A stretch of DNA of 64,000 bases from an uncultured Dehalococcoidia bacterium (GCA_964423835.1 CAYRGJ010000006.1:11284-75283); one strand, 5' to 3'. Numbered from the stretch's first letter, positions 4,662-33,216 are shown. Made by a program: numbers and translations. The notes: generated by a model from the sequence alone, not told the origin.

Positions 4662-4690
4662 TTGTGAGTATACGATACTCGAAGTATAAT
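4662..4690 (+). promoter_or_regulatory. Sigma70-like promoter TTGTGA-17nt-TATAAT with operator box copy 1 (4666..4684) filling the spacer
   Basis: TTGTGAGTATACGATACTCGAAGTATAAT, 66 nt upstream of the ATG at 4756. The core GAGTAT-ACG-ATACTC is a perfect inverted repeat. Confidence 0.6.
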
Positions 4691-4755
4691 AGCGGTATGC
4701 GAACAACACGGCCTCGAGCCTGGCATTGTCAAGGTGAGGGAATGAGAGGGCCATC

Positions 4756-5928
4756 ATGAACCTGCACTTCAGCCACGAGGACGAGAGCTTTCGGCAGGAG
4801 GTGCTCCAGTTCATAAGGGCGGAGCTGCCGCCTGACTGGAAGGGGACCGGTCTCCTCTCGGAAGCCCATGGCGAGGACGAGTGGCGCTTTGCCCGTGACA
4901 TGCTGCGCAAGGTAGGCGCGCGGGACTGGCACTCGCTGGCCTGGCCGAAGGAATATGGCGGCCAGGAGTCCATGACGAAGCAGTTCATCTTCAGCGAGGA
5001 GATGTACTACCACGAGCTGCCCGGGGTGGACCTGGTGGGCACCCTCATGCTGGCGCCTTCCATCATGCAGCACGGCAGCGAGGAGCAGAAGCGCGAGCAC
5101 CTGCCCCGGATTGCCCGGGGCGAGGTGGTCTGGTGCCAGGGATTCAGCGAGCCCGGGGCCGGCTCTGATCTGGCCTCTCTGTCGTCGCGGGCCATGGACC
5201 TCGGCGACGGCTTCCTGGTCAACGGGCAGAAGGTGTGGAGCACCAACGCCAATCGAGCCGACTGGGGCTACTTCCTGGTCCGGACCGATCCGGACGCTCC
5301 CAAGCACAAGGGCATCACCTTTCTGCTCATAGACATGCGGACGGAAGGAGTCACCGTTCGCCATCTGCCCAACATCGTCGGCACCTATTGCGAGATATTC
5401 CTGGATAACGTTCGGGTTCCGAAGAAGAACATGGTAGGCCGCATGAACGACGGATGGAGGGTGGCGAATACGGTCCTGGGCTATGAGAGGTCCGGTGTGC
5501 ACCGGATCAGCGCCGCCAGGCGCAACCTGGACAAGCTGATCCAGTACGCCAGAGAGACCACTCGAAACGGCCAACCGCTCTTCAAGGCACCGCTGATAAG
5601 AAGCAGGCTGACGGATCTCTACATCGAGGCCCAATCCGTCAGGCTCCTGGCCCTGAGGGTGCTGTCGCTGCAGAGCAGTGGGAGAGACATCAGCTATGAG
5701 GTGTCCCTCTCGCGGCTGGGCGGCAGCCTGCTGCAGCAGCACGTGGCGAGCGCGGCCATGGATATCCTGGGCCCTCTGGGGTTGCTGGACCCAGGCTCGA
5801 AGTGGGGGCCGGCATCGGACTTCCGTCGCGAGTACCTCTACTCGCTGGGGGCGACCGTCGGCGCGGGGACCGCGGAGATTCAGCGGAACATCATTGCCAC
5901 CCGGGGACTGGGAATGCCCCGGTCCTAG
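4756..5928 (+). CDS. Acyl-CoA dehydrogenase family protein
   Basis: 390-aa ORF with ACAD-like features (WCQGFSEPGAGSDLASL, C-terminal GTAEIQRNIIA). Confidence 0.85.
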   Translation: MNLHFSHEDESFRQEVLQFIRAELPPDWKGTGLLSEAHGEDEWRFARDMLRKVGARDWHSLAWPKEYGGQESMTKQFIFSEEMYYHELPGVDLVGTLMLAPSIMQHGSEEQKREHLPRIARGEVVWCQGFSEPGAGSDLASLSSRAMDLGDGFLVNGQKVWSTNANRADWGYFLVRTDPDAPKHKGITFLLIDMRTEGVTVRHLPNIVGTYCEIFLDNVRVPKKNMVGRMNDGWRVANTVLGYERSGVHRISAARRNLDKLIQYARETTRNGQPLFKAPLIRSRLTDLYIEAQSVRLLALRVLSLQSSGRDISYEVSLSRLGGSLLQQHVASAAMDILGPLGLLDPGSKWGPASDFRREYLYSLGATVGAGTAEIQRNIIATRGLGMPRS

Positions 5929-5937
5929 ACCTCAGGC

Positions 5938-6702
5938 ATGGCGCTGGTCATGGGCAGACTGCAGGAAAGAGTGGCGCTGGTAACCGGAGGTGCCTCGGGG
6001 ATCGGCCGGGCCAGCGCCCTGGCCTTTGCCCGGGAAGGCGCCGTGGTGGCCATCGCGGACGTGGATGCCGTGGGTGGGAACGAGACGCGGCGGATGATCG
6101 AGGAGGATGGCGGTGAAGCCCTGTTCCTCAGGGCCGACGTCACCCGGGCCGCTGAGGTCGAGGTGCTGGTAAACGGGATCGTGAAGGCCTGTGGGCGGCT
6201 GGACTGCGCCTTCAACAACGCCGGCACCGTGGGAAAGCCATCGTCCACCGCGCGGTGCACAGAGGAGGACTGGGACTTCGTCGTCAGTGTAAACCTCAAA
6301 GGGGTCTTCCTGTGCCTGAAGTACGAGATCCTCCACATGCTGCAGCAGGGGCGGGGGGCGGTGGTCAATGCGGCCTCCGTGGCCGGCCTGATCGGAGTCA
6401 GGAACAACGCCGCCTATGTGGCCGCCAAGCATGGAGTGGTGGGGCTGACCAGAGCGGCGGCGCTGGAATGCGCCCAGGCTGGCGTGCGCGTCAATGCGGT
6501 GTGCCCTGGATTCGTGCGCACCCCCATCCTGGGCCTGGACGGAACACCCGAAAGCGAGTCCCGCTATGCGCGGCTCCACCCGATGGCCAGGCTGGCCGAG
6601 CCCGGAGAGGTCGCCGAGGCGGTGGTCTGGCTGTGCTCTGATGCGGCGTCCTACGTGACCGGCCACGCCATGAGCATCGACGGTGGCCTGGCGGCCCGGT
6701 GA
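5938..6702 (+). CDS. Short-chain dehydrogenase/reductase (SDR)
   Basis: TGGASGIG cofactor motif, NNAG, and YxxxK (YVAAKHG). Lies 9 nt after the upstream ACAD. Confidence 0.85.
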   Translation: MALVMGRLQERVALVTGGASGIGRASALAFAREGAVVAIADVDAVGGNETRRMIEEDGGEALFLRADVTRAAEVEVLVNGIVKACGRLDCAFNNAGTVGKPSSTARCTEEDWDFVVSVNLKGVFLCLKYEILHMLQQGRGAVVNAASVAGLIGVRNNAAYVAAKHGVVGLTRAAALECAQAGVRVNAVCPGFVRTPILGLDGTPESESRYARLHPMARLAEPGEVAEAVVWLCSDAASYVTGHAMSIDGGLAAR

Positions 6703-6787
6703 TTCGCGGCGCGTTGACCGTTCCCCGGCCATTTGTCAGAATGGAAGCCTGGATTCCTTCGACCACCGGGCCTTCGGCTGCAGCTTA

Positions 6788-7267
6788 CTAGATCTGCGTG
6801 AAGCACTCGATGTCGTGGATGGTGCCCCGGCGCGCCTCCTTGAACACCGCCCTCACCCTGGCCCCCACCGTGATCTTCTTCTCGTCGGTCTCGTCCAGCC
6901 AGTGCATCAGGCAGGTGTCCGCCCCGTCGAGCTTCACGTAGATGTCGGTGCGAGGCACCTTCATCGGCTCCCCGGTATTGGGATCGATGTAGGGCAGCTT
7001 CACCACGGTGAAGGCGTAGATAGAGCCTTCGGTGCCCAGGTCCACCCAGTGGTCCATGGTCTTGAAGCATCGCCCGCAGACCTCCCTGGGAGGCACATAC
7101 ACTCTTCCGCAATCGCGGCACTTGATGCCCAGGATCGTCTTCTGGTCCCGGAGTGCAGTGAAGAACCGGCTGAGGTAGCGCCCGCACTGCCAGTAGTAGA
7201 TGTGCTCCGCTCTGCCGGAGCCTATCTCCAGCAGCTCCACCTGTTCGCTGGCTTTCGCGCTCTTCAT
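6788..7267 (-). CDS. Zn-ribbon/OB-fold protein (DUF35 family)
   Basis: CRDCGRVYVPPREVCGRCF rubredoxin-like ribbon followed by an OB-fold-like segment. Lies directly downstream of a thiolase-fold gene. Confidence 0.8.
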   Translation of the reverse strand: MKSAKASEQVELLEIGSGRAEHIYYWQCGRYLSRFFTALRDQKTILGIKCRDCGRVYVPPREVCGRCFKTMDHWVDLGTEGSIYAFTVVKLPYIDPNTGEPMKVPRTDIYVKLDGADTCLMHWLDETDEKKITVGARVRAVFKEARRGTIHDIECFTQI

Positions 7268-7288
7268 ATTGCTTCCTCCCGTGCCGGC

Positions 7289-8443
7289 CTACGGCTTGAC
7301 CGATCTGAGGATAGTGGCCTCGAACCAGTAGCAGGAGCCAAAGGCGGTGGCCATGGCCGTCCTGACGTTGCTCACCTGTCTCTCCCCGGCCTTGCCCATG
7401 ACCTGGAGGGCCGCTTCTCCGATCCTGATCAGGGCCGTGGCCCCGATGGGGTTCGTTGACATTACCCCGCCCGAGGGGTTGATGGGCAGCTCGCCGTTCA
7501 TCTCGAATACCCCCTGCCTGACCAGCTTCGGCGCCTCGCCCGGGTCGCAGAACCGCATGTGGTCCATCCAGACCACGCCGCAGGTGGAGAAGGGCAGATA
7601 GAGCTCCATCACGTCTATCTCCTTGAGCGGGGCGGTGACCCCGGCCCGCCGGTACACCCGGTCCACCGCGGCCTGCTGGCAGGGCATCCTCTCCCAGTCG
7701 TAGTCCCCGAAGTACACGTAGTCGTGGGAGACGGCGGTGGCATGCACCCAGGCCGGCTGGCGGGCGATCCTCGGCGCCCTGGTCTCCGAAGCGTAGATGA
7801 CAGCGCAGGCGCCGTCCGTCCTGGGGCAGCTATCGAGCAGCTTGATGGGCCAGCACAGCATGGGCGACTTCAGCACGTCCTCAACAGTGATGTGCTTCCT
7901 GAGGTGGGCATAAGGATTGCGGAGAGCGTTGTTGTGGTCCCGGACCGAGACCAGGGCGGCGTCCTCCTGGGTGGCCCCGAACTGCTTCATGTACATGGCA
8001 TAGTGCGAGGCATTGGGGCCGATGGCCCCGCCGAAGAAGTCCCTCTCCACGATGGGGTCGGCGCAGGTGCTTATGGCCGCCTGGGTGTCCGACTCGGAGT
8101 TCTTCTCCCATCCGATGACCATGACCACGTCAAACAGGCCCGAGGCGACATGGTAGTAGCCGCACGACCCCAGCGTGCCGCCGGTGCTGCCTCCGGTGGT
8201 CACCTTCATGATGGGCTTCATGAACGCGCCGGAGCCATCGATGCTCCATCCGTCCACGCAGTTGATGCCCTCGAAGTGGTCCATATTGCCGATGACGATG
8301 GCGTCTATGTCCTTCAGGCTGAGCTGGGCGTCATCCAGCGCCCTCTTCACCGCCTCGGCGATCAGCTCCTGCCCGTTGACGTCCTTCCGCTTGGAGGCGT
8401 GATTGGTCTGCCCTACTCCGACAATGGCCGTTCTCGTACCCAT
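7289..8443 (-). CDS. Thiolase-fold (SCP-x/Ltp-like) protein lacking the nucleophilic Cys motif
   Basis: N-terminus TAIVGVGQT. At the position of the CxSG nucleophile it reads VTTGGSTGG. At the position of C-F-G-H-P it reads MSTNPIGA. Confidence 0.8.
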   Translation of the reverse strand: MGTRTAIVGVGQTNHASKRKDVNGQELIAEAVKRALDDAQLSLKDIDAIVIGNMDHFEGINCVDGWSIDGSGAFMKPIMKVTTGGSTGGTLGSCGYYHVASGLFDVVMVIGWEKNSESDTQAAISTCADPIVERDFFGGAIGPNASHYAMYMKQFGATQEDAALVSVRDHNNALRNPYAHLRKHITVEDVLKSPMLCWPIKLLDSCPRTDGACAVIYASETRAPRIARQPAWVHATAVSHDYVYFGDYDWERMPCQQAAVDRVYRRAGVTAPLKEIDVMELYLPFSTCGVVWMDHMRFCDPGEAPKLVRQGVFEMNGELPINPSGGVMSTNPIGATALIRIGEAALQVMGKAGERQVSNVRTAMATAFGSCYWFEATILRSVKP

Positions 8444-8456
8444 CTTGCCCTGCCTC

Positions 8457-9593
8457 CTAGTTGCTCAGCACCCAGACGCAGTGAGTCTGGGCGCATATTC
8501 CGGTGACGCCGTGGGCCACGGCCAGCTTCGCCCCCGGGACCTGCCGCCGTCCGGCTTCGCCTCTGAGCTGCAGCACGGCTTCGGCTATCCTGGCCAGCCC
8601 GGCCACCTGAACGCTGTGCGCCGAAAGGACCCCTCCGGAGGGATTGACCGGCAGCCTGCCTCCCATCTGCGTCGCTCCGCTGTCGATCAGCCTCCCCCCT
8701 TCGCCCAGGCCGCAGAGCCCCAGCCCCTCATACCACATGAGCTCCATGTAGGAGAAGGCGTCATACACCTCGGCCACCTGGATTTCCCGAGAAGGATCGC
8801 TGACGCCGGCCATCCGGTAGGCCTTCCCCGCTGCCGCTTCCAGGGCCGGCGAGACCGCCAGGTCCCTTTCGCCCAGGCGATAGGCGTCCGCGCAGTGCCC
8901 CACGCCCCTGACCCATACGGGCTTCCGGGCCATCTTCCTGGCCCTCTCCTCGGTGGCCAGGACGATGGCGCAGGCGCCGTCGGAGATGGGTGACGTGTCC
9001 AGCCGCTTGATGGGGTCCGCCAGCATGGGGGACTTCATGACGTCCGCCACCGTGATGTCCAGTGGCACGTGGGCCAGGGGGTTGTTCCTGGCGTTCCGGT
9101 GGTTCTTCACCGAGACCCTGGCGCACTGCTCTTCGGTGATGCCGAATCGATTCATGTAGGCCCTGGCCTGCAGTGCGCAAGAGGAGATGGCATCCAGGCC
9201 CAGGAACCGCTCGTATACAGGGTCAAAGGCCTGATTGAATAGCTTCCGCGGAGAGCCCTCCGACAGCTTGCAGTGGGCCGTCACCATGGTGCTGCCGTAG
9301 ACCCCCGAGAGCGTCCTCATCAGCCCGTAGAAGGCGCCGAGGGTCCCGTCTCCTTCGACGTTGGTGGCGTCCCGGCCGTAGGACCCGGCTGCCTCCGCCA
9401 CGGCCATGCAGGCGATGGTGCGCCCGTCGTAGAAATCATTGGTGGTGGTGACCACGTTGTCGATGTCCTTCAGCTCCAGGCCGGCGTCGTCCAGGGCGTT
9501 CCTGGCCGCCTCGTACACCAGCTCGGCGAAGCTCTGGGTCTTGCCTCTTTCATACCGGGTTTGCCCCACGCCGACTATGGCTATCCTCTCCAT
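8457..9593 (-). CDS. Thiolase-fold (SCP-x/Ltp-like) protein, second paralogue, nucleophilic Cys also absent
   Basis: N-terminus MERIAIVGVGQTRY. The nucleophile position reads VEGDGTLG. C-terminal NPSGGVLSAHS. Confidence 0.8.
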   Translation of the reverse strand: MERIAIVGVGQTRYERGKTQSFAELVYEAARNALDDAGLELKDIDNVVTTTNDFYDGRTIACMAVAEAAGSYGRDATNVEGDGTLGAFYGLMRTLSGVYGSTMVTAHCKLSEGSPRKLFNQAFDPVYERFLGLDAISSCALQARAYMNRFGITEEQCARVSVKNHRNARNNPLAHVPLDITVADVMKSPMLADPIKRLDTSPISDGACAIVLATEERARKMARKPVWVRGVGHCADAYRLGERDLAVSPALEAAAGKAYRMAGVSDPSREIQVAEVYDAFSYMELMWYEGLGLCGLGEGGRLIDSGATQMGGRLPVNPSGGVLSAHSVQVAGLARIAEAVLQLRGEAGRRQVPGAKLAVAHGVTGICAQTHCVWVLSN

Positions 9594-9596
9594 GGG

Positions 9597-10118
9597 CTAC
9601 TTCTCCCTCTTGACCAGCCGGAAATATCTGATGTCGAGGTAGTTCCCCTGGGGCTGGCTCCTGAAGACGGCCTTCAGCCGCACCCCTTCCTTCAGGGCCC
9701 TGAGGCCGGCTCCGGCGATGAGGTGGGTCAGTCCGGTATCGGCCCCGTCCAGCTTGATGATGCCGCAGGCGAAGGGGGCCTTTAACGGATGCAACTCCGG
9801 CTCGCGGTAGCGCACCACGGTGAAGGTCTGCAGCGTGCCCTCAGGGCCCACCTCCACCCAGTCGTCAAGCTCCCCGAAGCAGCGGTGGCAGTTCTTCTTG
9901 GGGGGCACCATGACCAGCCGGCACCTGGGGCAGCGGACGCCGTAGATCTTCTTGTTCCGCAGCCCGGCATAGAACCGGCTGGCCGTCGCCCCGGCCGCCC
10001 AGGTGTAGGGAACGCGGATCACCCCCTGATGGGTCAGCAGGCCGTCCTTCTCCCTGACCTCCAGAAGAGTCTCATTCTCCATTTCATCCTCCAGAACCGG
10101 TTTGGCGGCCTCCGGCAT
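9597..10118 (-). CDS. Zn-ribbon/OB-fold protein (DUF35 family)
   Basis: CPRCRLVMVPPKKNCHRCF ribbon. Only a 3-nt gap to the downstream thiolase-fold gene. Confidence 0.8.
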   Translation of the reverse strand: MPEAAKPVLEDEMENETLLEVREKDGLLTHQGVIRVPYTWAAGATASRFYAGLRNKKIYGVRCPRCRLVMVPPKKNCHRCFGELDDWVEVGPEGTLQTFTVVRYREPELHPLKAPFACGIIKLDGADTGLTHLIAGAGLRALKEGVRLKAVFRSQPQGNYLDIRYFRLVKREK

Positions 10119-10162
10119 GGCGTCACTCCAGCCGGCCGCCGGCCGGGCCGAGCCCGGCCGCC

Positions 10163-10612
10163 CTACGAGCCTTTCGCGCTGCGTCGCGCGATGAAGGTGC
10201 GCATGGTGCCCACCGCCACGTCCTCCCCCCTCTGGTTCTTGACCGTCTGCTTGAAGGTCACTACCCCGCCGCGCTCGTCCTTGTCCTCTTTTCCGGCCGT
10301 CTCAAACTCCACGTGGATAGTGTCCAGCAGCTTCACCGGGCTCACGAACCTCAGCTTGTCGATGCCGTAGAAGGCCACAATGGCGATCTGGGACAGGGGC
10401 AGGAGGCCCGACGCCACCGAGAGCACCAGAAAGCCGTGGGCAATCCTCTCCTTGAAGGGGCCCGTCCGGGCGTACTCGATATCCGTGTGCAGCGGGTGCC
10501 AGTCCCCGCTGAACGCGGAGAACATTACCACATCGGCCTCGGTAATGGTCCGGCCACGGGTGACGATCCGGTCACCGACCTGAAAATCCTCGAAATACCT
10601 CATCTCCGGCAT
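10163..10612 (-). CDS. MaoC-like (R)-specific enoyl-CoA hydratase (hot-dog fold)
   Basis: 149 aa; FSAFSGDWHPLHTD motif. Confidence 0.8.
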   Translation of the reverse strand: MPEMRYFEDFQVGDRIVTRGRTITEADVVMFSAFSGDWHPLHTDIEYARTGPFKERIAHGFLVLSVASGLLPLSQIAIVAFYGIDKLRFVSPVKLLDTIHVEFETAGKEDKDERGGVVTFKQTVKNQRGEDVAVGTMRTFIARRSAKGS

Positions 10613-10641
10613 ATCACCACTCCCGAATGCCCGGCCGGACC

Positions 10642-12219
10642 TCAGTGGACCCGGCGCTTCTCCCCGTGCCAGTACCTCTCGCGAAGCGCCTTCTTGTCAT
10701 GCTTGCCCACCGATGTAAGGGGGATCTGATCCACGAAGTCAACGGACTTGGGCGCCTTTATCGATCCCTTCCGGTCCTTGCACAGCTGGATGATCTCCTC
10801 GGCGGTGACCGCCTTGCCGGGGTGCCGGACCACCACGGCCTTCAGTGCTTCGCCCCAGCTCGGGTCCGGAACGCCGATGACCGCCACGTCGGCCACGGCG
10901 GGGTGCTCGTGAATGGTGGCCTCGATCTCCTTCGGATACACGTTCCAGCCGCCGCTTATCACCATGTCCTTCTTGCGGTCCAGGATGTAGACATAGCCTT
11001 CGCTGTCCCGGCGGCCGACGTCCCCGGTGTGCAGCCAGCCGTTCTTCATGGTCTTCGCCGTCTCCTCCGGCTTGTTCAGGTAGCCCAGCATCATGTTGGG
11101 GGCTTTCACCGCTATCTCCCCCTCGCCGCCGGGGGCCACTTCCCGGCCGTCATCGTCCACCAGGCGCAGCTGGCACATGAGGGTCGGCTTCCCGCACGAA
11201 GCCAGGCGGCCCTCGTGTTTCAGGGCCTCCACGTGGTCCTCCTTGCTGAGGGTGGTCAGGAACATGGGGGATTCGGTCTGGCCAAAGACCTGCACCAACA
11301 CCGGTCCGAAGGCGGCCATGGCCTGCCTCAGCCGCTCCGGGCCGATGGGAGACGCGCCATAGATGATGGTGTTGAGGCTGCCGCTGTCGAACTTCTTCAG
11401 GTCCGGGTAGTCCAGGATGCGGTAGAGCATGGTCGGCACCACGAAGGTGGCCGTGACCTTGTGTTTGGCCACTGTCTGCAGGAAGAGCTCGGGGGTGAAG
11501 CGGTCCAGTACCAGCTGGGTGCCGCCCCGCAGGCAGACCGGCAGCATGAACACGTTAGACGCGTGGGACATGGGGGCCACATGCAGAAAGGTGTGCCTCA
11601 CCCCCAGGCCGATTTCGGACATGGCCGTGAGGTACGTGTGCACCCGGTTGGCCGAAGCGTGAAGGCACCCCTTGGGGACCCCCGTCGTCCCGCCCGTGTA
11701 GTAGATGGAGATGACATCGTCCTCGCTCACGCTCACTCCGGGGTCCCCCGTCGACTCGGAGCCCACTACCTCCCAGAAATCGGCGCTGTGGGAAGGGACG
11801 GCGCTGCCCTGGGAGATCATCAGCGAGTGCTTCACCGTCCGCAGTTCCGGGCGCATCTGGTCGAAGTGCTCCGCATACCTGGCCCCGTAGATGACGGCGC
11901 CGGCGCCGGAGTCGTTGGCCATGTAGGCATTGTCGGCCGGGGACACGATCCCGTCGTGCAGAATGACCTGGGTCAGCCCGGCCTTGGCCAGGCCATAGTC
12001 CAGGATGATGCTCTCGATGCTGTTGGCAATCAGCGTGCCCACTCGGTCGCCCTTCCTCAACCCCATCTTCAGCAGGGCGTGGCCCAGCTGGCGCCCTCTA
12101 TCCCCCAGCTCCCGGTACGTCATCTGGCGGTCGTCTTTCACCGCAGCCACCCTGTCCGCATAGTGATCGATGGCCCAGTCATAGAGCTGGCCTATGGTGT
12201 ATCCCAGGTATCCCGCCAT
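10642..12219 (-). CDS. AMP-dependent acyl-CoA synthetase/ligase
   Basis: 525 aa; AMP-binding motif YTGGTTGVPKG; GWLHTGD; C-terminal conserved Lys region (GKHDKKALR). Confidence 0.9.
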   Translation of the reverse strand: MAGYLGYTIGQLYDWAIDHYADRVAAVKDDRQMTYRELGDRGRQLGHALLKMGLRKGDRVGTLIANSIESIILDYGLAKAGLTQVILHDGIVSPADNAYMANDSGAGAVIYGARYAEHFDQMRPELRTVKHSLMISQGSAVPSHSADFWEVVGSESTGDPGVSVSEDDVISIYYTGGTTGVPKGCLHASANRVHTYLTAMSEIGLGVRHTFLHVAPMSHASNVFMLPVCLRGGTQLVLDRFTPELFLQTVAKHKVTATFVVPTMLYRILDYPDLKKFDSGSLNTIIYGASPIGPERLRQAMAAFGPVLVQVFGQTESPMFLTTLSKEDHVEALKHEGRLASCGKPTLMCQLRLVDDDGREVAPGGEGEIAVKAPNMMLGYLNKPEETAKTMKNGWLHTGDVGRRDSEGYVYILDRKKDMVISGGWNVYPKEIEATIHEHPAVADVAVIGVPDPSWGEALKAVVVRHPGKAVTAEEIIQLCKDRKGSIKAPKSVDFVDQIPLTSVGKHDKKALRERYWHGEKRRVH

Positions 12220-12235
12220 ATCGACCCCTCCGGCC

Positions 12236-13396
12236 TCAGTCTCTCAGCAGCTCCCGGGCGATTATGATCTTGCGCACTTCGGTAGTCCCGGCGCCGATCT
12301 CGCCCAGCTTGGCATCCCTCAGCAGGCGGTTCACCGGGTAGTCCAGCATGTAGCTGTATCCGCCGTGGATCTGCACTGCATGCAGGGCCGCCTGCGTCGC
12401 CACCTGCCCGGCCAGGAGCAGGGCGGCGGCGGCCATCTTGTTGATCTCGGAGCCCTTGCCGCCCCGGTGGGACCCCTGGGCCAGGGTAGCCGCCTTAAAC
12501 ATGAGCAGCCTGGTGGACTCGATGCCCACGTACATATCCACCAGCTTCTCCTGGATCAGCTGGAACTGGCCGATGGGTTGCCCGAATTGCACCCGCTCCC
12601 TGGCGTATTTCAGGGACAGGTCCAGGGCCCTCTCCGCTATGCCCAGCGTCCACCCCGTCCCCGCCACCCTCTCGAAATCCAGCCCGCCCATCATCACTGC
12701 CACCCCCTGGTTTAGGCCGCCCAGGATGTTCTCTTCCGGAACGCGGTACTCGTCGAAGATGAGCTCGCCGGTGGGCGAGCCCCTCTCCCCCATCTTCTCC
12801 AGGTGCCGGGCGGTGAACGTGCCCGGATACCCCGGCTCGACGATGAAGGCGGTGATGCCCCTGGCCCCTTTCTCGGGCTCGGTCTTGGCGTAGAGTATCA
12901 TGGCCCCGGCCTCGGGCCCGTTGGTGATGAAGGTCTTGGTGCCACTCAGGAGGTAGTGGCTGCCTTCCCGTTTGGCCCTCATCTGGATGCCGACGGCATC
13001 GGACCCGGCGTTGGGCTCGGTCAGCGCCAGGGCCCCCAGCTTCTCGCCCCGGCATAGCGGCGGCAGGTACTTCTGCCGCTGCGCTTCAGTCCCGTTGCGG
13101 TACAGGTTGTCGCAGCACAGGTTGGAGTGCGCGTGGCAGGACAGGCTCAGCGCCGGGCAGATGCGACTCATCTGCTCCAGGCAGAGGCACTGGGCCAGGT
13201 AGTCCATGCCCGAGCCCCCATAGCTCTCGGGAACGCTGACCCCCATCCAGCCCAGGCCGCCCAGCTTCCGGAATATCCCGTCCGGCAGCCTGTCCTCTCT
13301 GTCGATCCGCTCCGCAATGGGATCGATCTCCCGCAGCATGAAGTCGTAGACCGACTCGGCCAGCATCTTGTGGGCTTCGCCCAGCTCGAAATCCAT
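12236..13396 (-). CDS. Acyl-CoA dehydrogenase
   Basis: ORF trimmed to ATG 13396, preceded by a GAGGAGAAGG RBS. ALTEPNAGSD and a C-terminal GTTEVRKIIIAREL signature. Confidence 0.9.
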   Translation of the reverse strand: MDFELGEAHKMLAESVYDFMLREIDPIAERIDREDRLPDGIFRKLGGLGWMGVSVPESYGGSGMDYLAQCLCLEQMSRICPALSLSCHAHSNLCCDNLYRNGTEAQRQKYLPPLCRGEKLGALALTEPNAGSDAVGIQMRAKREGSHYLLSGTKTFITNGPEAGAMILYAKTEPEKGARGITAFIVEPGYPGTFTARHLEKMGERGSPTGELIFDEYRVPEENILGGLNQGVAVMMGGLDFERVAGTGWTLGIAERALDLSLKYARERVQFGQPIGQFQLIQEKLVDMYVGIESTRLLMFKAATLAQGSHRGGKGSEINKMAAAALLLAGQVATQAALHAVQIHGGYSYMLDYPVNRLLRDAKLGEIGAGTTEVRKIIIARELLRD

Positions 13397-13456
13397 GCCT
13401 TCTCCTCTTCTCCGCGTCAAGCACCGACGAGGACGGAACGGCTCGTCGAGATGGAT

Positions 13457-14320: not shown

Positions 14321-14376
14321 TTGTACCCCTCCTTCCTGTTGCCCGACCATTCAGGGATGGCCGGGATCACCCCGGC

Positions 14377-15141: not shown

Positions 15142-15262
15142 GGCCAGTCTCTCCCCCTATACTACCGAATCCGCGAGCACGCGCCTGGCGCGAGTACACC
15201 TGCCGCAACTCGCACGCTGTCTCCAGATGGCGCGCCATCGCCGGTACGCGGCGACGCGCGCA

Positions 15263-17040: not shown

Positions 17041-17170
17041 TGGCACCCCCCGCACTCAATAGTTGTAATCACCCCCGATTCAGTCGTTGCAACACGACTG
17101 GCATCGGCAAAGCACTATCACACCGAGAGCGACCACGTTGCCGGCTCAGCTTTGTGGCTTGGTCGTCCGC

Positions 17171-19266: not shown

Positions 19267-19527
19267 TCAGTTCCTCCCCCCTCTGAAGCACCGGCGAAAG
19301 ACCTCGCGCAACGAGAAGTAGGGCAGGAGCAGGATGTAGGAGACTACGCCCCAGGAGAAGGCTATCTTCAAGCCCCGGAGCAGCTCCGGCGACGTGAGGA
19401 CCATGTCCATGCGCATCACGCCCAAAGCCTTGCCATCGATGATCAGCCTGTTGTCCTGTCGCTTGACAGCGAAGAACTCGGCGATGACCTCTCCGTCCTG
19501 ATCCAGCACCTTCACCCCGTTTTCCAT
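19267..19527 (-). CDS. Small hypothetical protein with a C-terminal hydrophobic segment
   Basis: 86-aa ORF filling the gap between the CrtI-like and SDR genes. Its stop lies 2 nt from the SDR start. GAGG sits upstream of the ATG. No family recognised. Confidence 0.45.
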   Translation of the reverse strand: MENGVKVLDQDGEVIAEFFAVKRQDNRLIIDGKALGVMRMDMVLTSPELLRGLKIAFSWGVVSYILLLPYFSLREVFRRCFRGGRN

Positions 19528-19572
19528 CGCGGCTGCCTCAGCGGACCATCTTTATCCGCACCATGCCCGCGG

Positions 19573-21153: not shown

Positions 21154-21181
21154 CCCCCTTTCGGCAGGCCCCGGCCGGGGC

Positions 21182-21703: not shown

Positions 21704-21734
21704 CCTGCACCTGCTCTCCCGGCTTCCGCCATCG

Positions 21735-23171: not shown

Positions 23172-23242
23172 GCTCCTTGCCTCCTACTGACTTCGACTAT
23201 CAATGTGGAATACGCCCTCTGCCGGCAGGCCGGCGGCCCGCT

Positions 23243-24460: not shown

Positions 24461-24503
24461 CCAGCCCTCTCCGCTCTTGTGATACCGGCCTGGGTCAGCG
24501 GTG

Positions 24504-25427: not shown

Positions 25428-25511
25428 CCGACCTCCTCTTCTTGAATCCGGCTCCCGCTTCTTGAATCCGGCTTCCCCCGGAGAGGCCCCGCCATGGGGC
25501 CGCCATGTTAT

Positions 25512-25530
25512 GAGTATACGATGATCGAAC
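25512..25530. promoter_or_regulatory. Operator box copy 2 (GAGTATACGATGATCGAAC), upstream of the minus-strand gene run
   Basis: Intergenic, 85 nt upstream of start 25427. On the minus strand the box contains TATACT, a possible -10. Confidence 0.55.
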
Positions 25531-25622
25531 TGTAATTCCGAATCATAGCACGGCATTTGCCCGGCGTCAACTGCCGGCCGCCCGGCCGATTTGGCGGTCT
25601 ACGGTGACAGCGCGAGGGGCCA

Positions 25623-26180
25623 CTAGCCTGCTCCAAGCTGCACATCATCCTGGGCCGAGTCCCGGTCCGGCCCCCCCCAGCCATACGGAGCCGAAAGGCC
25701 GCTCTTTAGCTCCTCGATGGCCTTCTTCAGCAGTTTCTCCAGCGCCGCCTCCACCGTCTCGCTCTCTTTCGGGGTGAGCTGTGACAGGATTCTGGCCACG
25801 GCCCCCGCTTCCTTCTGCCGCTGGAAAGCCCTTTCGCCCTTCTCGGTCAGCAGGATGCGGGATACGTTCCTCCGTTTGGAGTCTCTCTTGCGGCGCACCA
25901 GGCCTTGCTTCTCCATGCGATCCAGCAGGTCCGACACCGTGTGCGGCCTCCGGAAGAGCAGCCTGGCCAGATCGGCCGGCGTTGGGGGCTCCCTGGAGAT
26001 CTTCACCCAGTACAGCACCGCGGCCTGGATCATGGTGAGGCCCAGGGCCCTCATCTCCGCCTCCGCGACCCTGATCACCACCCAGTACGCCTGGTTGAAT
26101 GTGTTCCAGAAGGGTCCGTACCCCTGACCGGCGGCAATCGACTCAACATCTCCCGCTACCTTCTTCTTGGATGCTCTCAA
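25623..26180 (-). CDS. MarR-family transcriptional regulator
   Basis: 185 aa with a winged-helix pattern (LTMIQAAVLYWV...PTPADLARLLFRRPHTVSDLLDRMEKQGLVRR). GAGGAGG RBS. Confidence 0.85.
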   Translation of the reverse strand: MRASKKKVAGDVESIAAGQGYGPFWNTFNQAYWVVIRVAEAEMRALGLTMIQAAVLYWVKISREPPTPADLARLLFRRPHTVSDLLDRMEKQGLVRRKRDSKRRNVSRILLTEKGERAFQRQKEAGAVARILSQLTPKESETVEAALEKLLKKAIEELKSGLSAPYGWGGPDRDSAQDDVQLGAG

Positions 26181-26232: not shown

Positions 26233-26251
26233 GAGTATACGATACTCGAAC
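26233..26251. promoter_or_regulatory. Operator box copy 3 (GAGTATACGATACTCGAAC), upstream of marR
   Basis: 53 nt upstream of the marR start. TATACT reads toward marR on the minus strand. Confidence 0.6.
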
Positions 26252-26363
26252 TATGCCTTCCAAATGCTACCACGGTCATTTCGGCGAGTCAATATGGCGT
26301 GCTTGTTCACCATGAACGGCGCACTTGACAGTGCAGAACCGGAGTAATATGATGCGCAGTACA

Positions 26364-26382
26364 CTTCGAGTTTCGTATACTC
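26364..26382. promoter_or_regulatory. Operator box copy 4 (CTTCGAGTTTCGTATACTC, reverse orientation), upstream of the mutase gene
   Basis: 79 nt upstream of ATG 26461. TATACT (26376-26381) reads toward the mutase gene. Confidence 0.6.
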
Positions 26383-26460: not shown

Positions 26461-28068
26461 ATGGCCTACAAAAGCGATGGGCAGGTACAGTCGCCATCAG
26501 GGATTCCCATCAAGGACATTTACACCCCGGAGGACGTCAAGAGCATCAACTATGAGAAGGACATCGGCTCGCCCGGGCAACCCCCCTACACCAGGGGAGT
26601 CTACGCCAGCATGTACCGGGGGCAGCTGTGGACCATCCGGCGCCTGACGGGGTACGACAGCCCGGAGGCCACCAACGCCCGCTACAAGGAAGAGTACGCC
26701 CTGGGCCAGACGGGCTTCTCCATCGCTCCGGATATCTCCACGGCCTCCGGAATGGACCCGGACGACCCCCGGGTCGAGCACGACATCGGCCACGCCGGGG
26801 TCCCCATCTATTCCATCGAGGACATGGAGGCAGTGTTCAAGGACCTGCCCATAGAGAAGTGCTCCACCTACCTGGCCGATCGCGTCTCCGGCCTGCTCAC
26901 CCCGGCCTACTTCGCCATGGCCCAGAGGCGCGGGATACCTCTGGAGAGGTTGAGAGGGACCACGGCCTATGACATGCTCACCTGGAGCTCGATGGAGTGC
27001 GCCAACCAGCCGCCGCCGGAAGCCTATCTCCGGCTGGAGGTGGACCTGATAGAGTGGTGTGCCCAGCATGCACCGCGCTGGTACCCCATATGCATGAACT
27101 CCTACAACCCCAGGGATAACGGCATCAGCGCCATCCAGGAGCTGGGCATGCTCATGGCCGACGCCATCCAGATCTGCGAAGAAGGGAAGCGCCGCGCCCG
27201 GGTCCCCATGGACACGTTCTGCAAGAGGTTCGCCTTCAACATGGCGGCGCACAATGACCTGTTCGAGGAGGCCTGCAAGCTGCGGGCGGCGCGGCGCATG
27301 CTGCGCAAGATCATCAATGAGAGGTACGGGGTCCAGGACCCATCGTGCGGGCAGTTCCGGGTGCACGTCCAGACCTCCGGCTCCACGCACACTCACCAGG
27401 AGCCGCTCAACAACGTCATCCGCATTGCCTACCAGACTCTGGCGGCGGTGCTGGGCGGGGCCCAGTCCATACATGCCAATGGCTACGACGAGGCGGTATG
27501 CCTGCCCACGGAGCAGGCCATGCTGCTGGCCATCCGGACGGAGCAGATCGTCGGCCTGGAGACGGGCGTGACAAACACCATAGACCCGCTGGGCGGCTCG
27601 TACTACGTGGAGTCTCTCACCAACCAGATCGAGGAAAGGGCCTGGGAGTACGTCAAGAAGATCGAGGACCAGGGCGGCCTCATGAAGGCCATTTCCAATG
27701 GCTGGATCCACCGCGAGTACAAGCAAGCCATAGTGGACTACGACGGCAAGCTGAAATCGGGCGATATCACCATCGTCGGCGTCAACAAGTTCCGCCTCGA
27801 TCCGGACAAGGTCCCCTACAAGGTGCCCATCTTCAAGTCCGACCGCAGCTCCGTCGAGGTCCTCAAGAAGAGGATCAAGAAGCTCCGGGAGACCCGGGAC
27901 AAGGCCCGACATGCCGCGGCCATCAAGAGCTTCGAAGAGGTTCTCCGCACCGACGCCAACTCCTTCCCGGCCAGCCAGGAGGCGGTGGCCGCCCATGCCA
28001 CCCCGGGGGAGATGGCCGATGTGGTCATGAAGGTCTACGGCAAGTGGACCTACCCTATAGGTGTCTAA
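26461..28068 (+). CDS. Acyl-CoA mutase large (substrate-binding TIM-barrel) subunit, divergent, no B12-binding domain
   Basis: 535 aa; AAGGAGG RBS; PPYTRGVYASMYRGQLWTIR and GQTGFS motifs like methylmalonyl-CoA mutase. Ends before the region where the cobalamin-binding domain would be. Confidence 0.8.
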   Translation: MAYKSDGQVQSPSGIPIKDIYTPEDVKSINYEKDIGSPGQPPYTRGVYASMYRGQLWTIRRLTGYDSPEATNARYKEEYALGQTGFSIAPDISTASGMDPDDPRVEHDIGHAGVPIYSIEDMEAVFKDLPIEKCSTYLADRVSGLLTPAYFAMAQRRGIPLERLRGTTAYDMLTWSSMECANQPPPEAYLRLEVDLIEWCAQHAPRWYPICMNSYNPRDNGISAIQELGMLMADAIQICEEGKRRARVPMDTFCKRFAFNMAAHNDLFEEACKLRAARRMLRKIINERYGVQDPSCGQFRVHVQTSGSTHTHQEPLNNVIRIAYQTLAAVLGGAQSIHANGYDEAVCLPTEQAMLLAIRTEQIVGLETGVTNTIDPLGGSYYVESLTNQIEERAWEYVKKIEDQGGLMKAISNGWIHREYKQAIVDYDGKLKSGDITIVGVNKFRLDPDKVPYKVPIFKSDRSSVEVLKKRIKKLRETRDKARHAAAIKSFEEVLRTDANSFPASQEAVAAHATPGEMADVVMKVYGKWTYPIGV

Positions 28069-28146
28069 GGAGAGCGCCCGGAGGCAAGTCTGCGGTGGCA
28101 GCGGGCCGGTGGCGAGGGTCACTAAGTAACGGAACGGAGCTGAGAG

Positions 28147-29337
28147 TTGGAGAAGGCGATATCAGGCATCAGGGTCCTTGATTTCTCACGGTGGTTTGCC
28201 GGGCCTTATGCAGCCACGCTGCTGGCGGCCATGGGCGCCGAAGTGATCAGGGTGGAAAGGCCTGCCGGCGAGGAAGAGAGGAACTTCGGGCCTTTCGCTC
28301 CCAACGGTCAGGCCATGCTGGCCCTGGTGACTCTGCAGAACCGGAAAGGCATTACGTTGGACCCCATGTGTGGTCAGGGCCGGGGGATCATGGAAAGGCT
28401 GGTGCGGAAGAGCGACGTGGTGCTGCACAGCTACGTCAGCGGCTCGCCGGAAGAAAGCCTTTTGAGCTACGGGTCCCTGGTGAAGCTGAATCCGGCCATC
28501 ATCGTGGCCAAGGTCTCTGGCTTCGGCTCCACCGGGCCGTACGCCCAGCGGCCGTGCTTCGATACCATTGCCCAGGCGCTCTCGGGGTCCATGAGCTACA
28601 CCGGGTTCCCCGAGACCGCCCCCACCAGGTCGGGCTCCGCCTGGGTGGACTTCAGCACTGGCTCTCATGCCGCCCTGGGCATCATGTTTGCTCTCTACGA
28701 GCGGCAGAGGACAGGCACAGGGCAGTTCATCGACGTTGCCCTGCTGGACGTGGCCGTGTCCTGCGTGGCCGGGCTCGCGGTGGCGGCGGAGTACAAGGTG
28801 GCGGGCATAGTCCGCGGCCGGCAGGGGAACTACAGCTACTACAACTACACCAACTGCGTCAGGGCCAGGGACGGGTGGGTCATGATCGGCATCACCGGGA
28901 CGGCCATCTGGAGGCGGTTCCTGCGGGCAGTCGGGAGAGAGGAACTGAAGGAAGACCCCCGGTTTCAGAGCGACAGGCTCCGCTACGACAACCGCCTGGC
29001 CATTCAGGCGATCGTGGAGGAGTGGCTCAAAGACAGGCCGGTGGATGAGGTGATCAGGCTTCTGGAAAAGGCCCGGGTGCCCTGCTCCAAGGTGAACAGC
29101 ATCGCCGAGATGGTAGAAGACCCGCAGGTCAGGGCCAGGGACATGCTGATCGACATGGAGTACCCCGGCATCGGCAGGGTGCCGCTGCCCGGCGTGCCCA
29201 TAAAGATGTCCCGGACTCCGGGGACGATCGACATGCCCGCGCCCCAGGTGGGGGAGCACAACGCTGAGGTCTATGGCCGGCTCCTGGGCCTGACGAAGGA
29301 GGACCTGGCCGGGCTGAAGGCGGAAGGGGTTATCTGA
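28147..29337 (+). CDS. Family III (CaiB/BaiF) CoA-transferase
   Basis: TTG start 28147. GIRVLDFSRWFAGPYAATLLAAMGAEVIRVERP. Confidence 0.85.
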   Translation: MEKAISGIRVLDFSRWFAGPYAATLLAAMGAEVIRVERPAGEEERNFGPFAPNGQAMLALVTLQNRKGITLDPMCGQGRGIMERLVRKSDVVLHSYVSGSPEESLLSYGSLVKLNPAIIVAKVSGFGSTGPYAQRPCFDTIAQALSGSMSYTGFPETAPTRSGSAWVDFSTGSHAALGIMFALYERQRTGTGQFIDVALLDVAVSCVAGLAVAAEYKVAGIVRGRQGNYSYYNYTNCVRARDGWVMIGITGTAIWRRFLRAVGREELKEDPRFQSDRLRYDNRLAIQAIVEEWLKDRPVDEVIRLLEKARVPCSKVNSIAEMVEDPQVRARDMLIDMEYPGIGRVPLPGVPIKMSRTPGTIDMPAPQVGEHNAEVYGRLLGLTKEDLAGLKAEGVI

Positions 29338-30784
29338 GGGGCGGCGGTCCGCTGTTCCGGGTGTGGTACTGCCTCACGCCGGCCACAGCTTTGGCCGCCC
29401 GCGCCATGGACGGATAGACCGGTATGCCCGCCTCGGACAGCCGGCCCTCCAACTCCAGGCGGTCCGTCTCCAGGCAGCCCGGCGGGGATACCACAATCAC
29501 CGGTTTGCCGGCCGCCCGGCTGTCCTTCAGGATCACGCTGCCGGCTGAATCCGCGGTTTCCCGGCCCATAAGGTCCAGCAGGGCGTCGACATCCTGGTAT
29601 ACCACGATCAAATCCAGGCGCCGGTCCGTGGCGGCGAGGTCCATCGCCCGCTGGAAGGCCCGCAGGACGCTGGGGCCAGGATTCGCTCCCGGCTTGCCGC
29701 CCGGCTCGACGGGGCACCGGCCGGGTGACGGCCGCCCCTTCCGGCCTGTACCGGCCGAGAAGACTGAGACCTCGATCCCGAAGAGGCGGCACTCATCCTC
29801 CGCCAGCCGGGCCTCGCTCTCTGCGTCGCCAGTCAACCCGCAGATGAGCCCGAGGCGGGCCTTCCGGATGGGGGCAGCCCTCTGGAGGAGCAGGAGAACG
29901 TCGGCCATCTCGTCCAGGCCCCGGACTTCGAGCGCGCCGGCCTGCTTCAGCGCCGCCGTCCAGACGGCCGCGGAGGTCCTCATGGCCCCGGTGTGAGAGC
30001 CGGCCGCCTTGGCGCCGGCTTCGGTGGCGCCTCCCTTCCAGACCACCACGGGCTTCCTGGCGGACGTGGCCCGCATCACCTGAAGCAATCGCCGGGTGTC
30101 CCGCGGTCCTTCCAGGTAGAGACCGATGGGGCCGGTCTTGGGATCGACGGCCATGTACTCCAGGAAGTCGGCGCTCCCCAGGTCGCAGCAATTGCCAATG
30201 CTGGCGATCTTGCTGAAGCCGATGCCCCGGGTCAGGCCCATCACCAAGAGCTTCTGGGCATGCCCGCCGCTCTGGGATATGAAGCCCACGGACCCGGGCC
30301 GGCCCACCACACTGGAGGCCCCGTAGGGCGTTTTGTGCTCGGGGCAGGACAGGCCAATGCAGTTGGGCCCGATGATCCGGAATCCCCCCTTTCCAGCCCT
30401 CCGGGCCATCTCCTCTTCAACCTGAATCCATTCCGGCTCGCCGGTTTCCCGGAACCCGGCGGTGAAGAAGTGCACTCCGCGCACCCTCTTGGCGGCGCAG
30501 TCATCCAGAAGATCCATAACAAAGGCCCGGGGGATGCAGGAGATAACCAGGTCCACCGGGCCCGGGATGGCCTGCAGATTGGGGTATATCCTGGCTCCCA
30601 GGAGCTCGCCGCCGGCGGGGTTGACGGGATAGACCCGGCCCTCGAAACTGGACTCCATCAGGGCCTTGACCCAGAGCGAGCCCATCTTTGCGCTATCCCG
30701 GGAGACGCCGACCACGGCGATGGAACGGGGATAGAAGATGTGCTCGAATTCCTTGAGCCTGCTCTCAGGCAACTGGTACTGCAA
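29330..30784 (-). CDS. ADP-forming acyl-CoA synthetase alpha-like / CoA-binding protein (no ATP-grasp part)
   Basis: FYPRSIAVVGVSRD CoA-binding start. GPNCIG. Phosphohistidine-loop-like GSHTGAM. Its stop overlaps the convergent CaiB gene by 8 nt. Confidence 0.75.
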   Translation of the reverse strand: MQYQLPESRLKEFEHIFYPRSIAVVGVSRDSAKMGSLWVKALMESSFEGRVYPVNPAGGELLGARIYPNLQAIPGPVDLVISCIPRAFVMDLLDDCAAKRVRGVHFFTAGFRETGEPEWIQVEEEMARRAGKGGFRIIGPNCIGLSCPEHKTPYGASSVVGRPGSVGFISQSGGHAQKLLVMGLTRGIGFSKIASIGNCCDLGSADFLEYMAVDPKTGPIGLYLEGPRDTRRLLQVMRATSARKPVVVWKGGATEAGAKAAGSHTGAMRTSAAVWTAALKQAGALEVRGLDEMADVLLLLQRAAPIRKARLGLICGLTGDAESEARLAEDECRLFGIEVSVFSAGTGRKGRPSPGRCPVEPGGKPGANPGPSVLRAFQRAMDLAATDRRLDLIVVYQDVDALLDLMGRETADSAGSVILKDSRAAGKPVIVVSPPGCLETDRLELEGRLSEAGIPVYPSMARAAKAVAGVRQYHTRNSGPPPLR

Positions 30785-30960
30785 TCGTCATGTCCCTCGA
30801 AATTGACCGGCCCTGGCCACCAGTATAGTCAGGGGATGCCCTCGATGGCAAAGGCGGCGCGGTCCGGGTATCGCCCGGCTATCACTTCACGTAGGCTGCC
30901 TGGGCCTGCTTGACACAGGCCTATTATTAGTGAGACGGAGTCTGGACTTGGAGGCGCGTG

Positions 30961-31644: not shown

Positions 31645-31698
31645 CCGGGGCTGGCTCCGGTCTGCCGGGCTCGTCGGGGTCTGCCGGGCCCCGAACGG

Positions 31699-33063
31699 CT
31701 AGTCCGGCCAGTCTTCGCCCGGAAGAGGCAGCATGAGCGGCTGGGGCTCGTCGTCCTTCCAGTACAGCTTGACTATGGGATGTCCCTTATCCCGCAGCAG
31801 CCTCTTCAGCTCCGCGGCGTCCACCGTGTCTTCGTTGGTGGCTATCTTGTCGTAGATCTCCTCGGGAATCACCTGGGCCACTTCCTTCTTCAGGTCCAAC
31901 GGCATCCAGACTATCCGGTTCCAGCCGCCGTCCCCTTTGAGGAAGTTCTTGCTGGCCATCCCGGCGATGGACAGCCCCTTGAAGCCGTGGTTCTGGGCCC
32001 CCCCGGAGATCGAGCCGGCCAGGGTCGAGAACTTCACCCCCAGCGGCGTCATGCCCGTGTAGCGCCGCATGGCCAGGCCGATACCGTCGACCTCTGGGAT
32101 ATAGAAGGATGCAGCTTCGAAGCAGCCGCAGTTGGTGGTGGGGTACCTGATGCTGCTGTAGATGTTGACCTGCTTCACCAGGTGGTTGCATCGCTCGTAG
32201 ATGGCCCGGTCGACACCGGCGTAGTGTCCCCTGGCTTCATCGATGCACTCTCCCTTGGGGATGCGGAAGACGTAGCCCTCGGGGTCCATCTCGCAGGTGA
32301 TCTTGGCGGAGTCATAGCCGATGATGCCGCAGTAGGGCAGGGCGCTCGGCGTCAGCACGCAGGCATGGTTGGGCGCCAGCGACTTGCATATGGTGCACCC
32401 GTAGAAGGTGTCCACGTCCTCATCATCGTACAGCTCCTTGGCGCTGATGACCTTGTGCTTGTCCCTGGCCCATTTCAACACCGGCTGCAGCATGTCCAGC
32501 CCGCCGGCCTCGGGAGAGCCCATGGCCCAGAAAAAGGACACGGCGTCCACCTGCGGCACCAGGGTCCGAGCCGTGGCATAGCAGAACTGAGATATCTTGG
32601 CGAAGGTGAGGCGGTCGGCCACATCCTTGCTGATCCTGATCCACAGGGCGTCCGGCGAGCCGAACAGCATGAAGCCCTCCAAGCCCTGGAGCGCCGTGCC
32701 TATCTGCCGCGAGACATAGCCCTGATGCCCCTGGTTCAGCGTCCGGCCGTAGACCCTGATGGTGAACACCCCGGGCAATGAAGTCCCCGGTTTGACCTCA
32801 TTCACGTCCGGGCCGATCAGCTTCACTTCGCCGTCCCTGACCTTCTCCGGATCCTCCTCGATGTAGAACACAGAGACCATGTTGTAGTCCCATTTGGGGC
32901 CGCCCAGCTCGACCTGCATGTCTGCCTTCTTCACCTCGCCCAGCCACCTCAGGCCGAGGCCGATGTCATCGAGGCCATCCCAAAGATGGTCCAGCTCGGT
33001 GGGCAGCTGAAATGTCCTCCCCGGCGGGAGCGGGGCTACTGATTCTTCATCTGGAACTGCCAT
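31699..33063 (-). CDS. Acetyl-CoA synthase catalytic (A-cluster) subunit homologue, AcsB C-terminal/CdhC-type, truncated
   Basis: 454 aa. C223-x2-C226-x8-C235-x9-C245 and N-C312-G-C314-FE, 67 residues after C245. The spacing is identical to the A-cluster ligands of Moorella AcsB as I recall them. Confidence 0.8.
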   Translation of the reverse strand: MAVPDEESVAPLPPGRTFQLPTELDHLWDGLDDIGLGLRWLGEVKKADMQVELGGPKWDYNMVSVFYIEEDPEKVRDGEVKLIGPDVNEVKPGTSLPGVFTIRVYGRTLNQGHQGYVSRQIGTALQGLEGFMLFGSPDALWIRISKDVADRLTFAKISQFCYATARTLVPQVDAVSFFWAMGSPEAGGLDMLQPVLKWARDKHKVISAKELYDDEDVDTFYGCTICKSLAPNHACVLTPSALPYCGIIGYDSAKITCEMDPEGYVFRIPKGECIDEARGHYAGVDRAIYERCNHLVKQVNIYSSIRYPTTNCGCFEAASFYIPEVDGIGLAMRRYTGMTPLGVKFSTLAGSISGGAQNHGFKGLSIAGMASKNFLKGDGGWNRIVWMPLDLKKEVAQVIPEEIYDKIATNEDTVDAAELKRLLRDKGHPIVKLYWKDDEPQPLMLPLPGEDWPD

Positions 33064-33086
33064 CCGGGCCCCCTCTCTCCATCATG

Positions 33087-33105
33087 CTTCGACTATCGTA
33101 TACTC
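33087..33105. promoter_or_regulatory. Operator box copy 5 (CTTCGACTATCGTATACTC), 24 nt from the ACS-like start codon
   Basis: Reverse complement is GAGTATACGATAGTCGAAG. It lies in the divergent intergenic region 33064..33415. Confidence 0.6.
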
Positions 33106-33197
33106 ACTCCCTGCTCTGTGTCAAGACTTCCGCGCGGCCGGGCCTCCCTCGTTGACTTGGTTCGGGGTCCGTGCTATAGTCGCAGCAGTGCCTGATG

Positions 33198-33216
33198 GTT
33201 CGAGTATCGTATACTC
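33198..33216. promoter_or_regulatory. Operator box copy 6 (GTTCGAGTATCGTATACTC)
   Basis: Perfect core in reverse orientation. TATACT (33210-33215) reads toward the plus-strand gene at 33416. Confidence 0.6.

Follow-up and report, generated by a model that had tools for sequence, protein, structure and literature searches.

MarR of Escherichia coli is an autoregulated winged-helix dimer whose (pseudo)palindromic binding sites lie within its own promoter and downstream of it. One site in marO lies between the -35 and -10 elements and another nearer the ribosome-binding site, and small ligands release the protein from the DNA; its regulon is essentially one operon, marRAB, with two sites. In Rhodococcus jostii RHA1, the MarR-family protein CouR represses p-hydroxycinnamate catabolism. 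Four promoters carry the inverted-repeat box to which CouR binds, two of them as a divergent pair at the CouR gene itself, and p-coumaroyl-CoA releases the protein (PMC4737184). Here we examine a stretch of 64,000 nucleotides (hereafter, the window) from an uncultured Dehalococcoidia bacterium (GCA_964423835.1 CAYRGJ010000006.1:11284-75283), in which an inverted-repeat box recurs at six promoter-like sites in a cluster of acyl-CoA catabolic genes that also encodes a MarR protein. We assign a probability of about 0.72 to the explanation that a dimeric winged-helix repressor uses this box as its operator at six promoters, the most probable candidate being the MarR protein encoded at 25623-26180. 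Taken by themselves, the role of the box as a repressor operator appears highly probable, and the adjacent MarR is probably the protein that binds it.

By analogy, the CouR regulon is the closest described system. In both cases a MarR repressor is encoded within a CoA-dependent catabolic cluster, and a box recurs in several promoters (four for CouR, six here), among them the regulator's own promoter and a divergent pair, all of the canonical -35/-10 type. Likewise, a single operator can serve two promoters, which in the present case is seen in relatives (loci L018, L019 and L036). The two systems differ in the operator itself: the CouR box is cATTGA-N5-TCAATg and lies on the -35 element, whereas the box described here is GAGTAT-N3-ATACTC and is mostly found downstream of the -10 element, at about +9 to +23. 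They also differ in that the similarity between the proteins is at the family level only, in the host, here an uncultured member of the Chloroflexota, and in the substrate pathway. Unlike the E. coli mar system, the present one has a single type of site distributed among six promoters in a metabolic cluster. In the library of papers searched, none contained the box sequence, DUF6125 or the PDB code 5E1W.

The six copies, c1 to c6 (Table 1), had been reported in the original prediction, and a scan of the whole window with GAGTATACGATACTC, allowing up to two mismatches, returned exactly those sites. The number expected from dinucleotide-preserving shuffles is 0.01, and none of 100 shuffles gave six or more matches. 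With up to four mismatches allowed, just two weak additional matches appeared, at 41244 (in coding sequence) and 50905, and these look like chance. The inverted repeat has a 6-3-6 arrangement, with half-site centres 9 bp apart; as had been stated before, it is perfect in three copies, and the other three have one or two mismatches in one half-site. These changes are confined to the right half-site, which reads ATGATC, AAACTC or ATAGTC. All six boxes are flanked by CGAA(G/C), giving the extended consensus TTGT-GAGTAT-ACG-ATACTC-GAAC. All six occurrences of the invariant 9-mer CGTATACTC in the 64 kb are in the boxes, with 0.08 occurrences expected. No box was found in the divergent region between the acyl-CoA-synthetase-like gene and hyp228 (30785-30957).

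The positions of the boxes relative to genes were assessed with gene calls based on GC content at third codon positions (GC3), Pfam and orthologue alignment; the GC content of the window is 65%. On these calls all six boxes are intergenic. Because intergenic DNA makes up only 7.2% of the interval 237-35348, the probability of this outcome by chance is about 1e-7; within the window, the claim that every copy is intergenic, as opposed to the box occurring at similar density inside genes, is upheld. Copy c2 does fall inside the longest open reading frame (ORF) of the ECH gene, 24504-25556. The true start of this gene is, however, predicted to be the ATG at 25427, which is preceded by AAGAGGAGG, and tblastn alignments of orthologues to this ORF cover about 294-299 residues, which fits a start well downstream of 25556. 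The distances from box to start codon are 71, 84, 52, 78, 23 and 190-199 nt for c1 to c6, respectively.

Promoters were sought by scanning for the sigma-70-type consensus, and the promoter-like sites discussed here are predictions of that kind. A strong site was found beside every box, and five such sites lie in 1.1 kb versus 0.4 expected. The marR and mutase promoters, and likewise the ACS and DUF6125 promoters, form back-to-back divergent pairs in which each promoter has its own box. For c2, c3, c4 and c6, the promoter matches 9-11 of the 12 consensus positions, and the 15-mer inverted repeat begins 14, 16, 14 and 21 nt, respectively, after the end of the -10 element. Given this distance of 14-21 nt, the 15-mer of these four copies would lie in the initially transcribed region, at about +9 to +23, and not on the -10. 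It had been proposed instead that the TATACT within these four boxes is itself a -10 hexamer. We rejected this assignment: it finds a weak partner at c3 alone (TTGGAA-18-TATACT, 9/12), while a better promoter lies 14-21 nt upstream of each box, and it is this upstream site, not the TATACT of the box, that is conserved across relatives (50/61 sites). The placement of c1 in the 17-nt spacer of a TTGTGA/TATAAT promoter, by contrast, was confirmed by the scan.

The gene at 25623-26180 encodes a MarR-family protein, with a winged helix-turn-helix that scores above the Pfam gathering thresholds (MarR_2, 46 bits with a cut-off of 27; MarR, 34.9 with 24.6; HTH_27, 29.4 with 22.2). Its length fits the range of small, single-domain MarR proteins (about 140-190 aa), and like these it would be expected to form a homodimer. 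In the PDB, 35 MarR-family structures match it at E <= 1e-3. The best match, 5e1w (E = 1.3e-10 over residues 25-150), has a similar length of 180 aa and an N-terminal extension; the similarity is nonetheless low and at the family level, and the name given by the depositors states no function. Across all ORFs of the cluster, Pfam and NCBIfam searches identify this MarR as the sole recognisable transcription factor, and the same searches gave no significant family match for hyp228, hyp198 or hyp86.

The exact 18-mer GAGTATACGATACTCGAA occurs six times in a one-genome-per-species data set of 185,579 species. Five of these occurrences are in three metagenome-assembled genomes (MAGs) from Chloroflexota/Dehalococcoidia, and one is in a Clostridia genome without related context. 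By tblastn, all five MAG loci are syntenic with the window cluster, their orthologous proteins sharing 70-93% amino acid identity with it, and the box is at the same positions. The 18-mer was also found in 53 metagenome contigs, mostly from freshwater and aquifer sediment, and in about 40 of these, orthologues of cluster genes lie beside the box. Boxes occupy orthologous positions upstream of marR, ECH-CaiB, ACAD-SDR and DUF6125/ACS, and the layouts BOX-marR-BOX-ECH-CaiB-…, BOX-ACAD-SDR and mutase-CaiB…BOX…DUF6125-ACS recur. The 19-gene operon is syntenic in L002, L003, L029, L035, L058, L061, L062 and L064. Ten of the 59 loci with the 18-mer (L006, L009, L011, L013, L016, L021, L024, L025, L027 and L052) were set aside as chance or unrelated matches, having neither a promoter cassette nor a cluster homologue; they are mostly on low-GC contigs. 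At L021:2011 and 2348 and L052:1229, the 15-mer is inside another repeat of about 60 nt, on an unrelated contig of 45% GC, with two copies 337 nt apart, identical flanks, and no promoter cassette or cluster genes; this occurrence looks coincidental.

Such recurrence might in principle reflect a mobile repeat similar to a repetitive extragenic palindrome or a miniature inverted-repeat transposable element (REP/MITE), or a promoter module copied by duplication or gene conversion, with conservation independent of any bound protein. In relatives of 54-58% GC, paralogous cassettes are indeed alike over about 110-150 nt, spacer and leader positions included. The copies in the window, however, have in common just the box and the -35 and -10 hexamers, their spacers and leaders being unrelated. 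All six lie within the acyl-CoA catabolic cluster at 4.6-33.2 kb and none at 34-64 kb. The exact 18-mer is likewise absent from the rest of the three MAGs, outside the orthologous cluster; the related copies are all at promoters of one functional gene set, with none at 3' ends or unrelated loci; and in the orthologous alignment the box is conserved well above its flanks. On the distribution of the box in the window, the three MAGs and the related loci, we rejected a dispersed repeat, and we regard the explanation as a whole as very unlikely.

That alignment comprises 14 orthologous marR→ECH intergenic regions, with a mean column identity of 64%. Invariant columns are concentrated in TTGAC, in the -10 element (G..TA...T) and in GA..ATCGTATACTC; outside these, five individual bases are invariant too, and the Shine-Dalgarno region is highly conserved. 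More broadly, 50 of 61 non-redundant related sites have a TTGACN-16..18-TANNNT promoter facing the box, compared with 0.2% of shuffled controls, and in 41 of those 50 exactly 15 nt separate the -10 from the 15-mer. A second geometry, in which the box fills the spacer of a TTGTGA/TATAAT promoter, is found at 11 of the 61 sites, and the arrangement TTGT-box-GAAGTATAAT recurs upstream of ACAD orthologues in L005, L018, L019, L028, L033 and L036. Six sites have both promoter types; here face-to-face promoters share one operator, driving ACAD and a divergent CrtI-like oxidoreductase gene. For example, at L018:1229, L019:4322, L033:3079, L036:3939 and L048:3260, one box lies between TTGTGA-17-TATAAT, directed toward ACAD, and TTGACC-17-TATCAT, directed toward the CrtI-like gene on the opposite side. 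In the window, the second promoter of the ACAD region is degenerate and there is no divergent gene.

A box at about +9 to +23 is predicted to be transcribed, as would be the case for four of the six window copies and for the same 50 of 61 related sites, and the hairpin that it would form close to the transcript's 5' end, with a 6-bp stem and a 3-nt loop, could then act as an mRNA stabiliser or leader element. Copies c1 and c5, however, would be untranscribed or only partly transcribed, because c1 is in a promoter spacer and c5 is on a -10. Compensatory changes are absent from 13 distinct orthologous sequences, in which six of six departures break pairs. RNAalifold gives a weak consensus fold of the leaders (-7.3 kcal/mol, with a covariation term of +0.24), and the sole Rfam match is a tRNA, with none for the box. 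Transcription of every copy and compensatory change are thus both lacking, and we rejected an RNA element as highly improbable.

Since the loci above had been found via the motif itself, additional loci were retrieved through the MarR protein. A 74%-identical MarR (L061, on a 713-kb contig) has four exact boxes within 20 kb. Two 64%-identical MarRs (loci L062-L065), beside a syntenic ECH operon, have boxes with one or two mismatches, GAGTATACGATTTTC and GAGTATACGATAATC. At the locus of a non-syntenic MarR paralogue of 42% identity, no box was found. This last locus (L066:8225-8260) has a divergent promoter, TTGACA-17-TACGAT, whose spacer carries ATACACGATATCG, containing the palindrome CGATATCG; the latter loosely resembles the box core TATACGATA and may be a related operator of a paralogous regulon.

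Several observations weigh against the proposed operator and its binder. The metagenome loci were selected for carrying the exact 18-mer, which inflates the apparent conservation of the box in that set. Every position given relative to +1 presumes a start about 7 nt after the -10. Conservation across the box is asymmetric: no base changes in the promoter-distal half or the central CGT, while the proximal half varies at positions 3-4, a constraint for which a simple model of a symmetric dimer does not account. Within the lineage of 64% identity, no box was found upstream of marR at L064. Finally, MarR paralogues of 42-50% identity share a near-identical recognition helix, FRePHTVS.LL.RMEKQGL; therefore, a paralogue or an unlinked transcription factor could be the true binder, with the adjacent marR merely a member of the regulon. 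At L007 and L031, a paralogue of 44-46% identity is found about 0.7-0.8 kb from an exact box. On the other side, orthologues of this marR stand beside boxes in more than 20 loci, with boxes upstream of them in at least 15, the cluster has no other conserved transcription factor, and the box is gone at the non-syntenic paralogue locus. We thus consider control by another regulator unlikely, though less so than the mobile repeat or the RNA element.

Sequence features of a MarR-type regulon are found here: the 6-3-6 inverted repeat in six promoter-like sites, a box at the regulator's own promoter (c3), and co-occurrence of regulator and operator. In the original prediction these boxes were one operator defining one regulon under an autoregulated MarR; synteny, phylogenetic footprinting and the co-occurrence of MarR orthologues support this strongly in silico, while the promoters it had placed in the boxes' own TATACT fall away. 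From the observed box pattern, promoter geometry, conservation and marR co-occurrence we infer binding, repression and a ligand, as follows. The six promoters with a box would drive about 26 acyl-CoA catabolic genes plus marR. A winged-helix homodimer would bind the inverted repeat and block RNA polymerase. At c2, c3, c4 and c6 the dimer, within the polymerase footprint, would clash with the open complex or block promoter escape; at c1 it would occupy the -35/-10 spacer, and at c5 the -10 itself. Through c3, marR would be autoregulated, and its transcript possibly reads through into the 19-gene operon. A pathway metabolite would release the repressor; judging from other MarR regulators of CoA-dependent catabolism, such as CouR, a CoA thioester is a plausible candidate. 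The system is most likely mechanistically conventional MarR-type repression, that is, a real, conserved and ordinary gene switch.

Table 1. Box copies, predicted promoter-like sites and genes in the window (positions counted from its first nucleotide).
Feature	Position	Strand	Description
c1	4666-4684	+	box GAGTATACGATACTCGAAG; 0 mismatches; in spacer of ACAD-SDR promoter
c2	25512-25530	+	box, 2 mismatches; on the transcribed (-) strand GTTCGATCATCGTATACTC, predicted at about +5 to +23 of the 19-gene operon transcript
c3	26233-26251	+	box, perfect; downstream of marR promoter; predicted autoregulatory site
c4	26364-26382 (15-mer match at 26368)	-	box, 1 mismatch; starts 10 nt after mutase -10
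c5	33087-33105 (15-mer match at 33091)	-	box, 1 mismatch; on -10 of ACS-beta-like gene promoter
c6	33198-33216 (15-mer match at 33202)	-	box, perfect; starts 17 nt after DUF6125 promoter -10
ACAD-SDR promoter-like site	4662-4690	+	TTGTGA-17-TATAAT; c1 fills spacer
19-gene operon promoter-like site	25542-25570	-	TTGACG-17-TATGAT; c2 downstream of -10
marR promoter-like site	26264-26292	-	TTGACT-17-TAGCAT; c3 downstream of -10
mutase-CaiB operon promoter-like site	26325-26353	+	TTGACA-17-TATGAT, 11/12 consensus; c4 downstream of -10
ACS/CODH-beta-like gene promoter-like site	33095-33124	-	TTGACA-18-TACGAT; c5 overlaps -10
DUF6125 promoter-like site	33152-33180	+	TTGACT-17-TATAGT; c6 downstream of -10
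ACAD / SDR	4756-5928 / 5938-6702	+	two-gene operon, 4756-6702
19-gene operon	6788-25427 (start 25427 down to 6788)	-	under c2
marR	25623-26180	-	185 aa, TTG start after GAGGAGG; candidate repressor
mutase-CaiB operon	26461-29337	+	methylmalonyl-CoA-mutase-like large subunit, then CaiB-type transferase
ADP-forming acyl-CoA-synthetase-like gene	29330-30784	-	
ACS/CODH beta-subunit homologue	31699-33063	-	under c5
DUF6125 gene	33407-34075	+	under c6

The gene calls confirm the minus-strand run of 19 genes described previously. This operon encodes ECH, a CaiB-type CoA-transferase, an HMG-CoA-synthase-like/DUF35 fusion, a CrtI/CrtO-family FAD oxidoreductase, SDR and thiolase, as well as CoA-transferase A/B, ECH, 3HCDH, ACAD, an AMP-ligase, MaoC and two thiolase-like/DUF35 pairs. 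In the fusion (21735-23171, minus strand), the HMG-CoA-synthase-like domain is joined to DUF35 (ChsH2 zinc-ribbon/OB); together with the thiolase-like/DUF35 pairs (6788-10118, minus strand) of the same operon, it recalls thiolase/HMGCS/DUF35 complexes and steroid side-chain aldolases.

The ACS/CODH beta-subunit homologue (CdhC-like) stands alone: the window encodes neither a CODH nor a corrinoid protein. The cysteine motifs of the A-cluster, C-x2-C…C…C and N-C-G-C-F-E, are retained, and the protein matches 9c0s_E with E = 4.6e-81. In the relatives L012 and L053, the DUF6125 and ACS genes are neighbours that point the same way, with a single box upstream of them. The window has a second DUF6125 gene, at 2255-2935 (plus strand). 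The leader between c6 and the DUF6125 gene listed in Table 1 (33217-33406) is unusually long, at about 190-200 nt, and in L004, L012 and L053 it reaches about 300 nt; neither an Rfam match nor a small ORF conserved across loci was found in it.

Genes under the box that bear on the nature of the pathway are, in the window, the CrtI/CrtO-family FAD oxidoreductase, the HMG-CoA-synthase-like/DUF35 fusion, the thiolase-like/DUF35 pairs, the B12-type acyl-CoA mutase and the CaiB-type CoA-transferases. Relatives add 3β-HSD/epimerase-family dehydrogenases, further CrtI-family oxidoreductases, a Peripla_BP_6 solute-binding protein and a PaaK-like CoA ligase. One tentative reading is that the box marks out a so far undescribed anaerobic route by which sediment Chloroflexota would break down a hydroxylated alicyclic or isoprenoid-like carboxylic acid, co-regulated with ACS beta and DUF6125, in which MarR might sense a CoA-thioester intermediate. 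If this were true, β-oxidation-like degradation would be tied directly to acetyl-CoA cleavage. The box offers a means, from sequence only, of assigning genes to one uncharacterised CoA-dependent pathway in uncultured sediment bacteria related to the Chloroflexota/Dehalococcoidia. The set so defined comprises about 26 genes in the window, to which relatives add transport, activation and oxidoreductase genes, and it links a stand-alone ACS β-subunit and two domains of unknown function to the pathway. As a candidate operator-repressor pair with rigid promoter geometry, the system would suit electrophoretic mobility shift assays (EMSA), DNA affinity purification sequencing (DAP-seq) and biosensor work.

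Many of the orthologous leaders carry a conserved element, …AACGCGA(A/T)ACTCAGAAGAGGAGG, right before the start codon (e.g. L003:960-985). The element is similar to the box's right half, CGATACTCGAAG; it may serve as a secondary half-site or in translation initiation. The equivalent region of the window, 25436-25472 on the minus strand, has instead a tandem repeat of two copies of GCCGGATTCAAGAAG. Past the catabolic cluster are genes for a 1415-aa Ig/MBG-repeat protein, mnmG, a Mur ligase, T2SS F-like and radical-SAM proteins, with no boxes among them; the right edge of the cluster itself is a tRNA gene at 36008-36079 (minus strand; Rfam, 65 bits).

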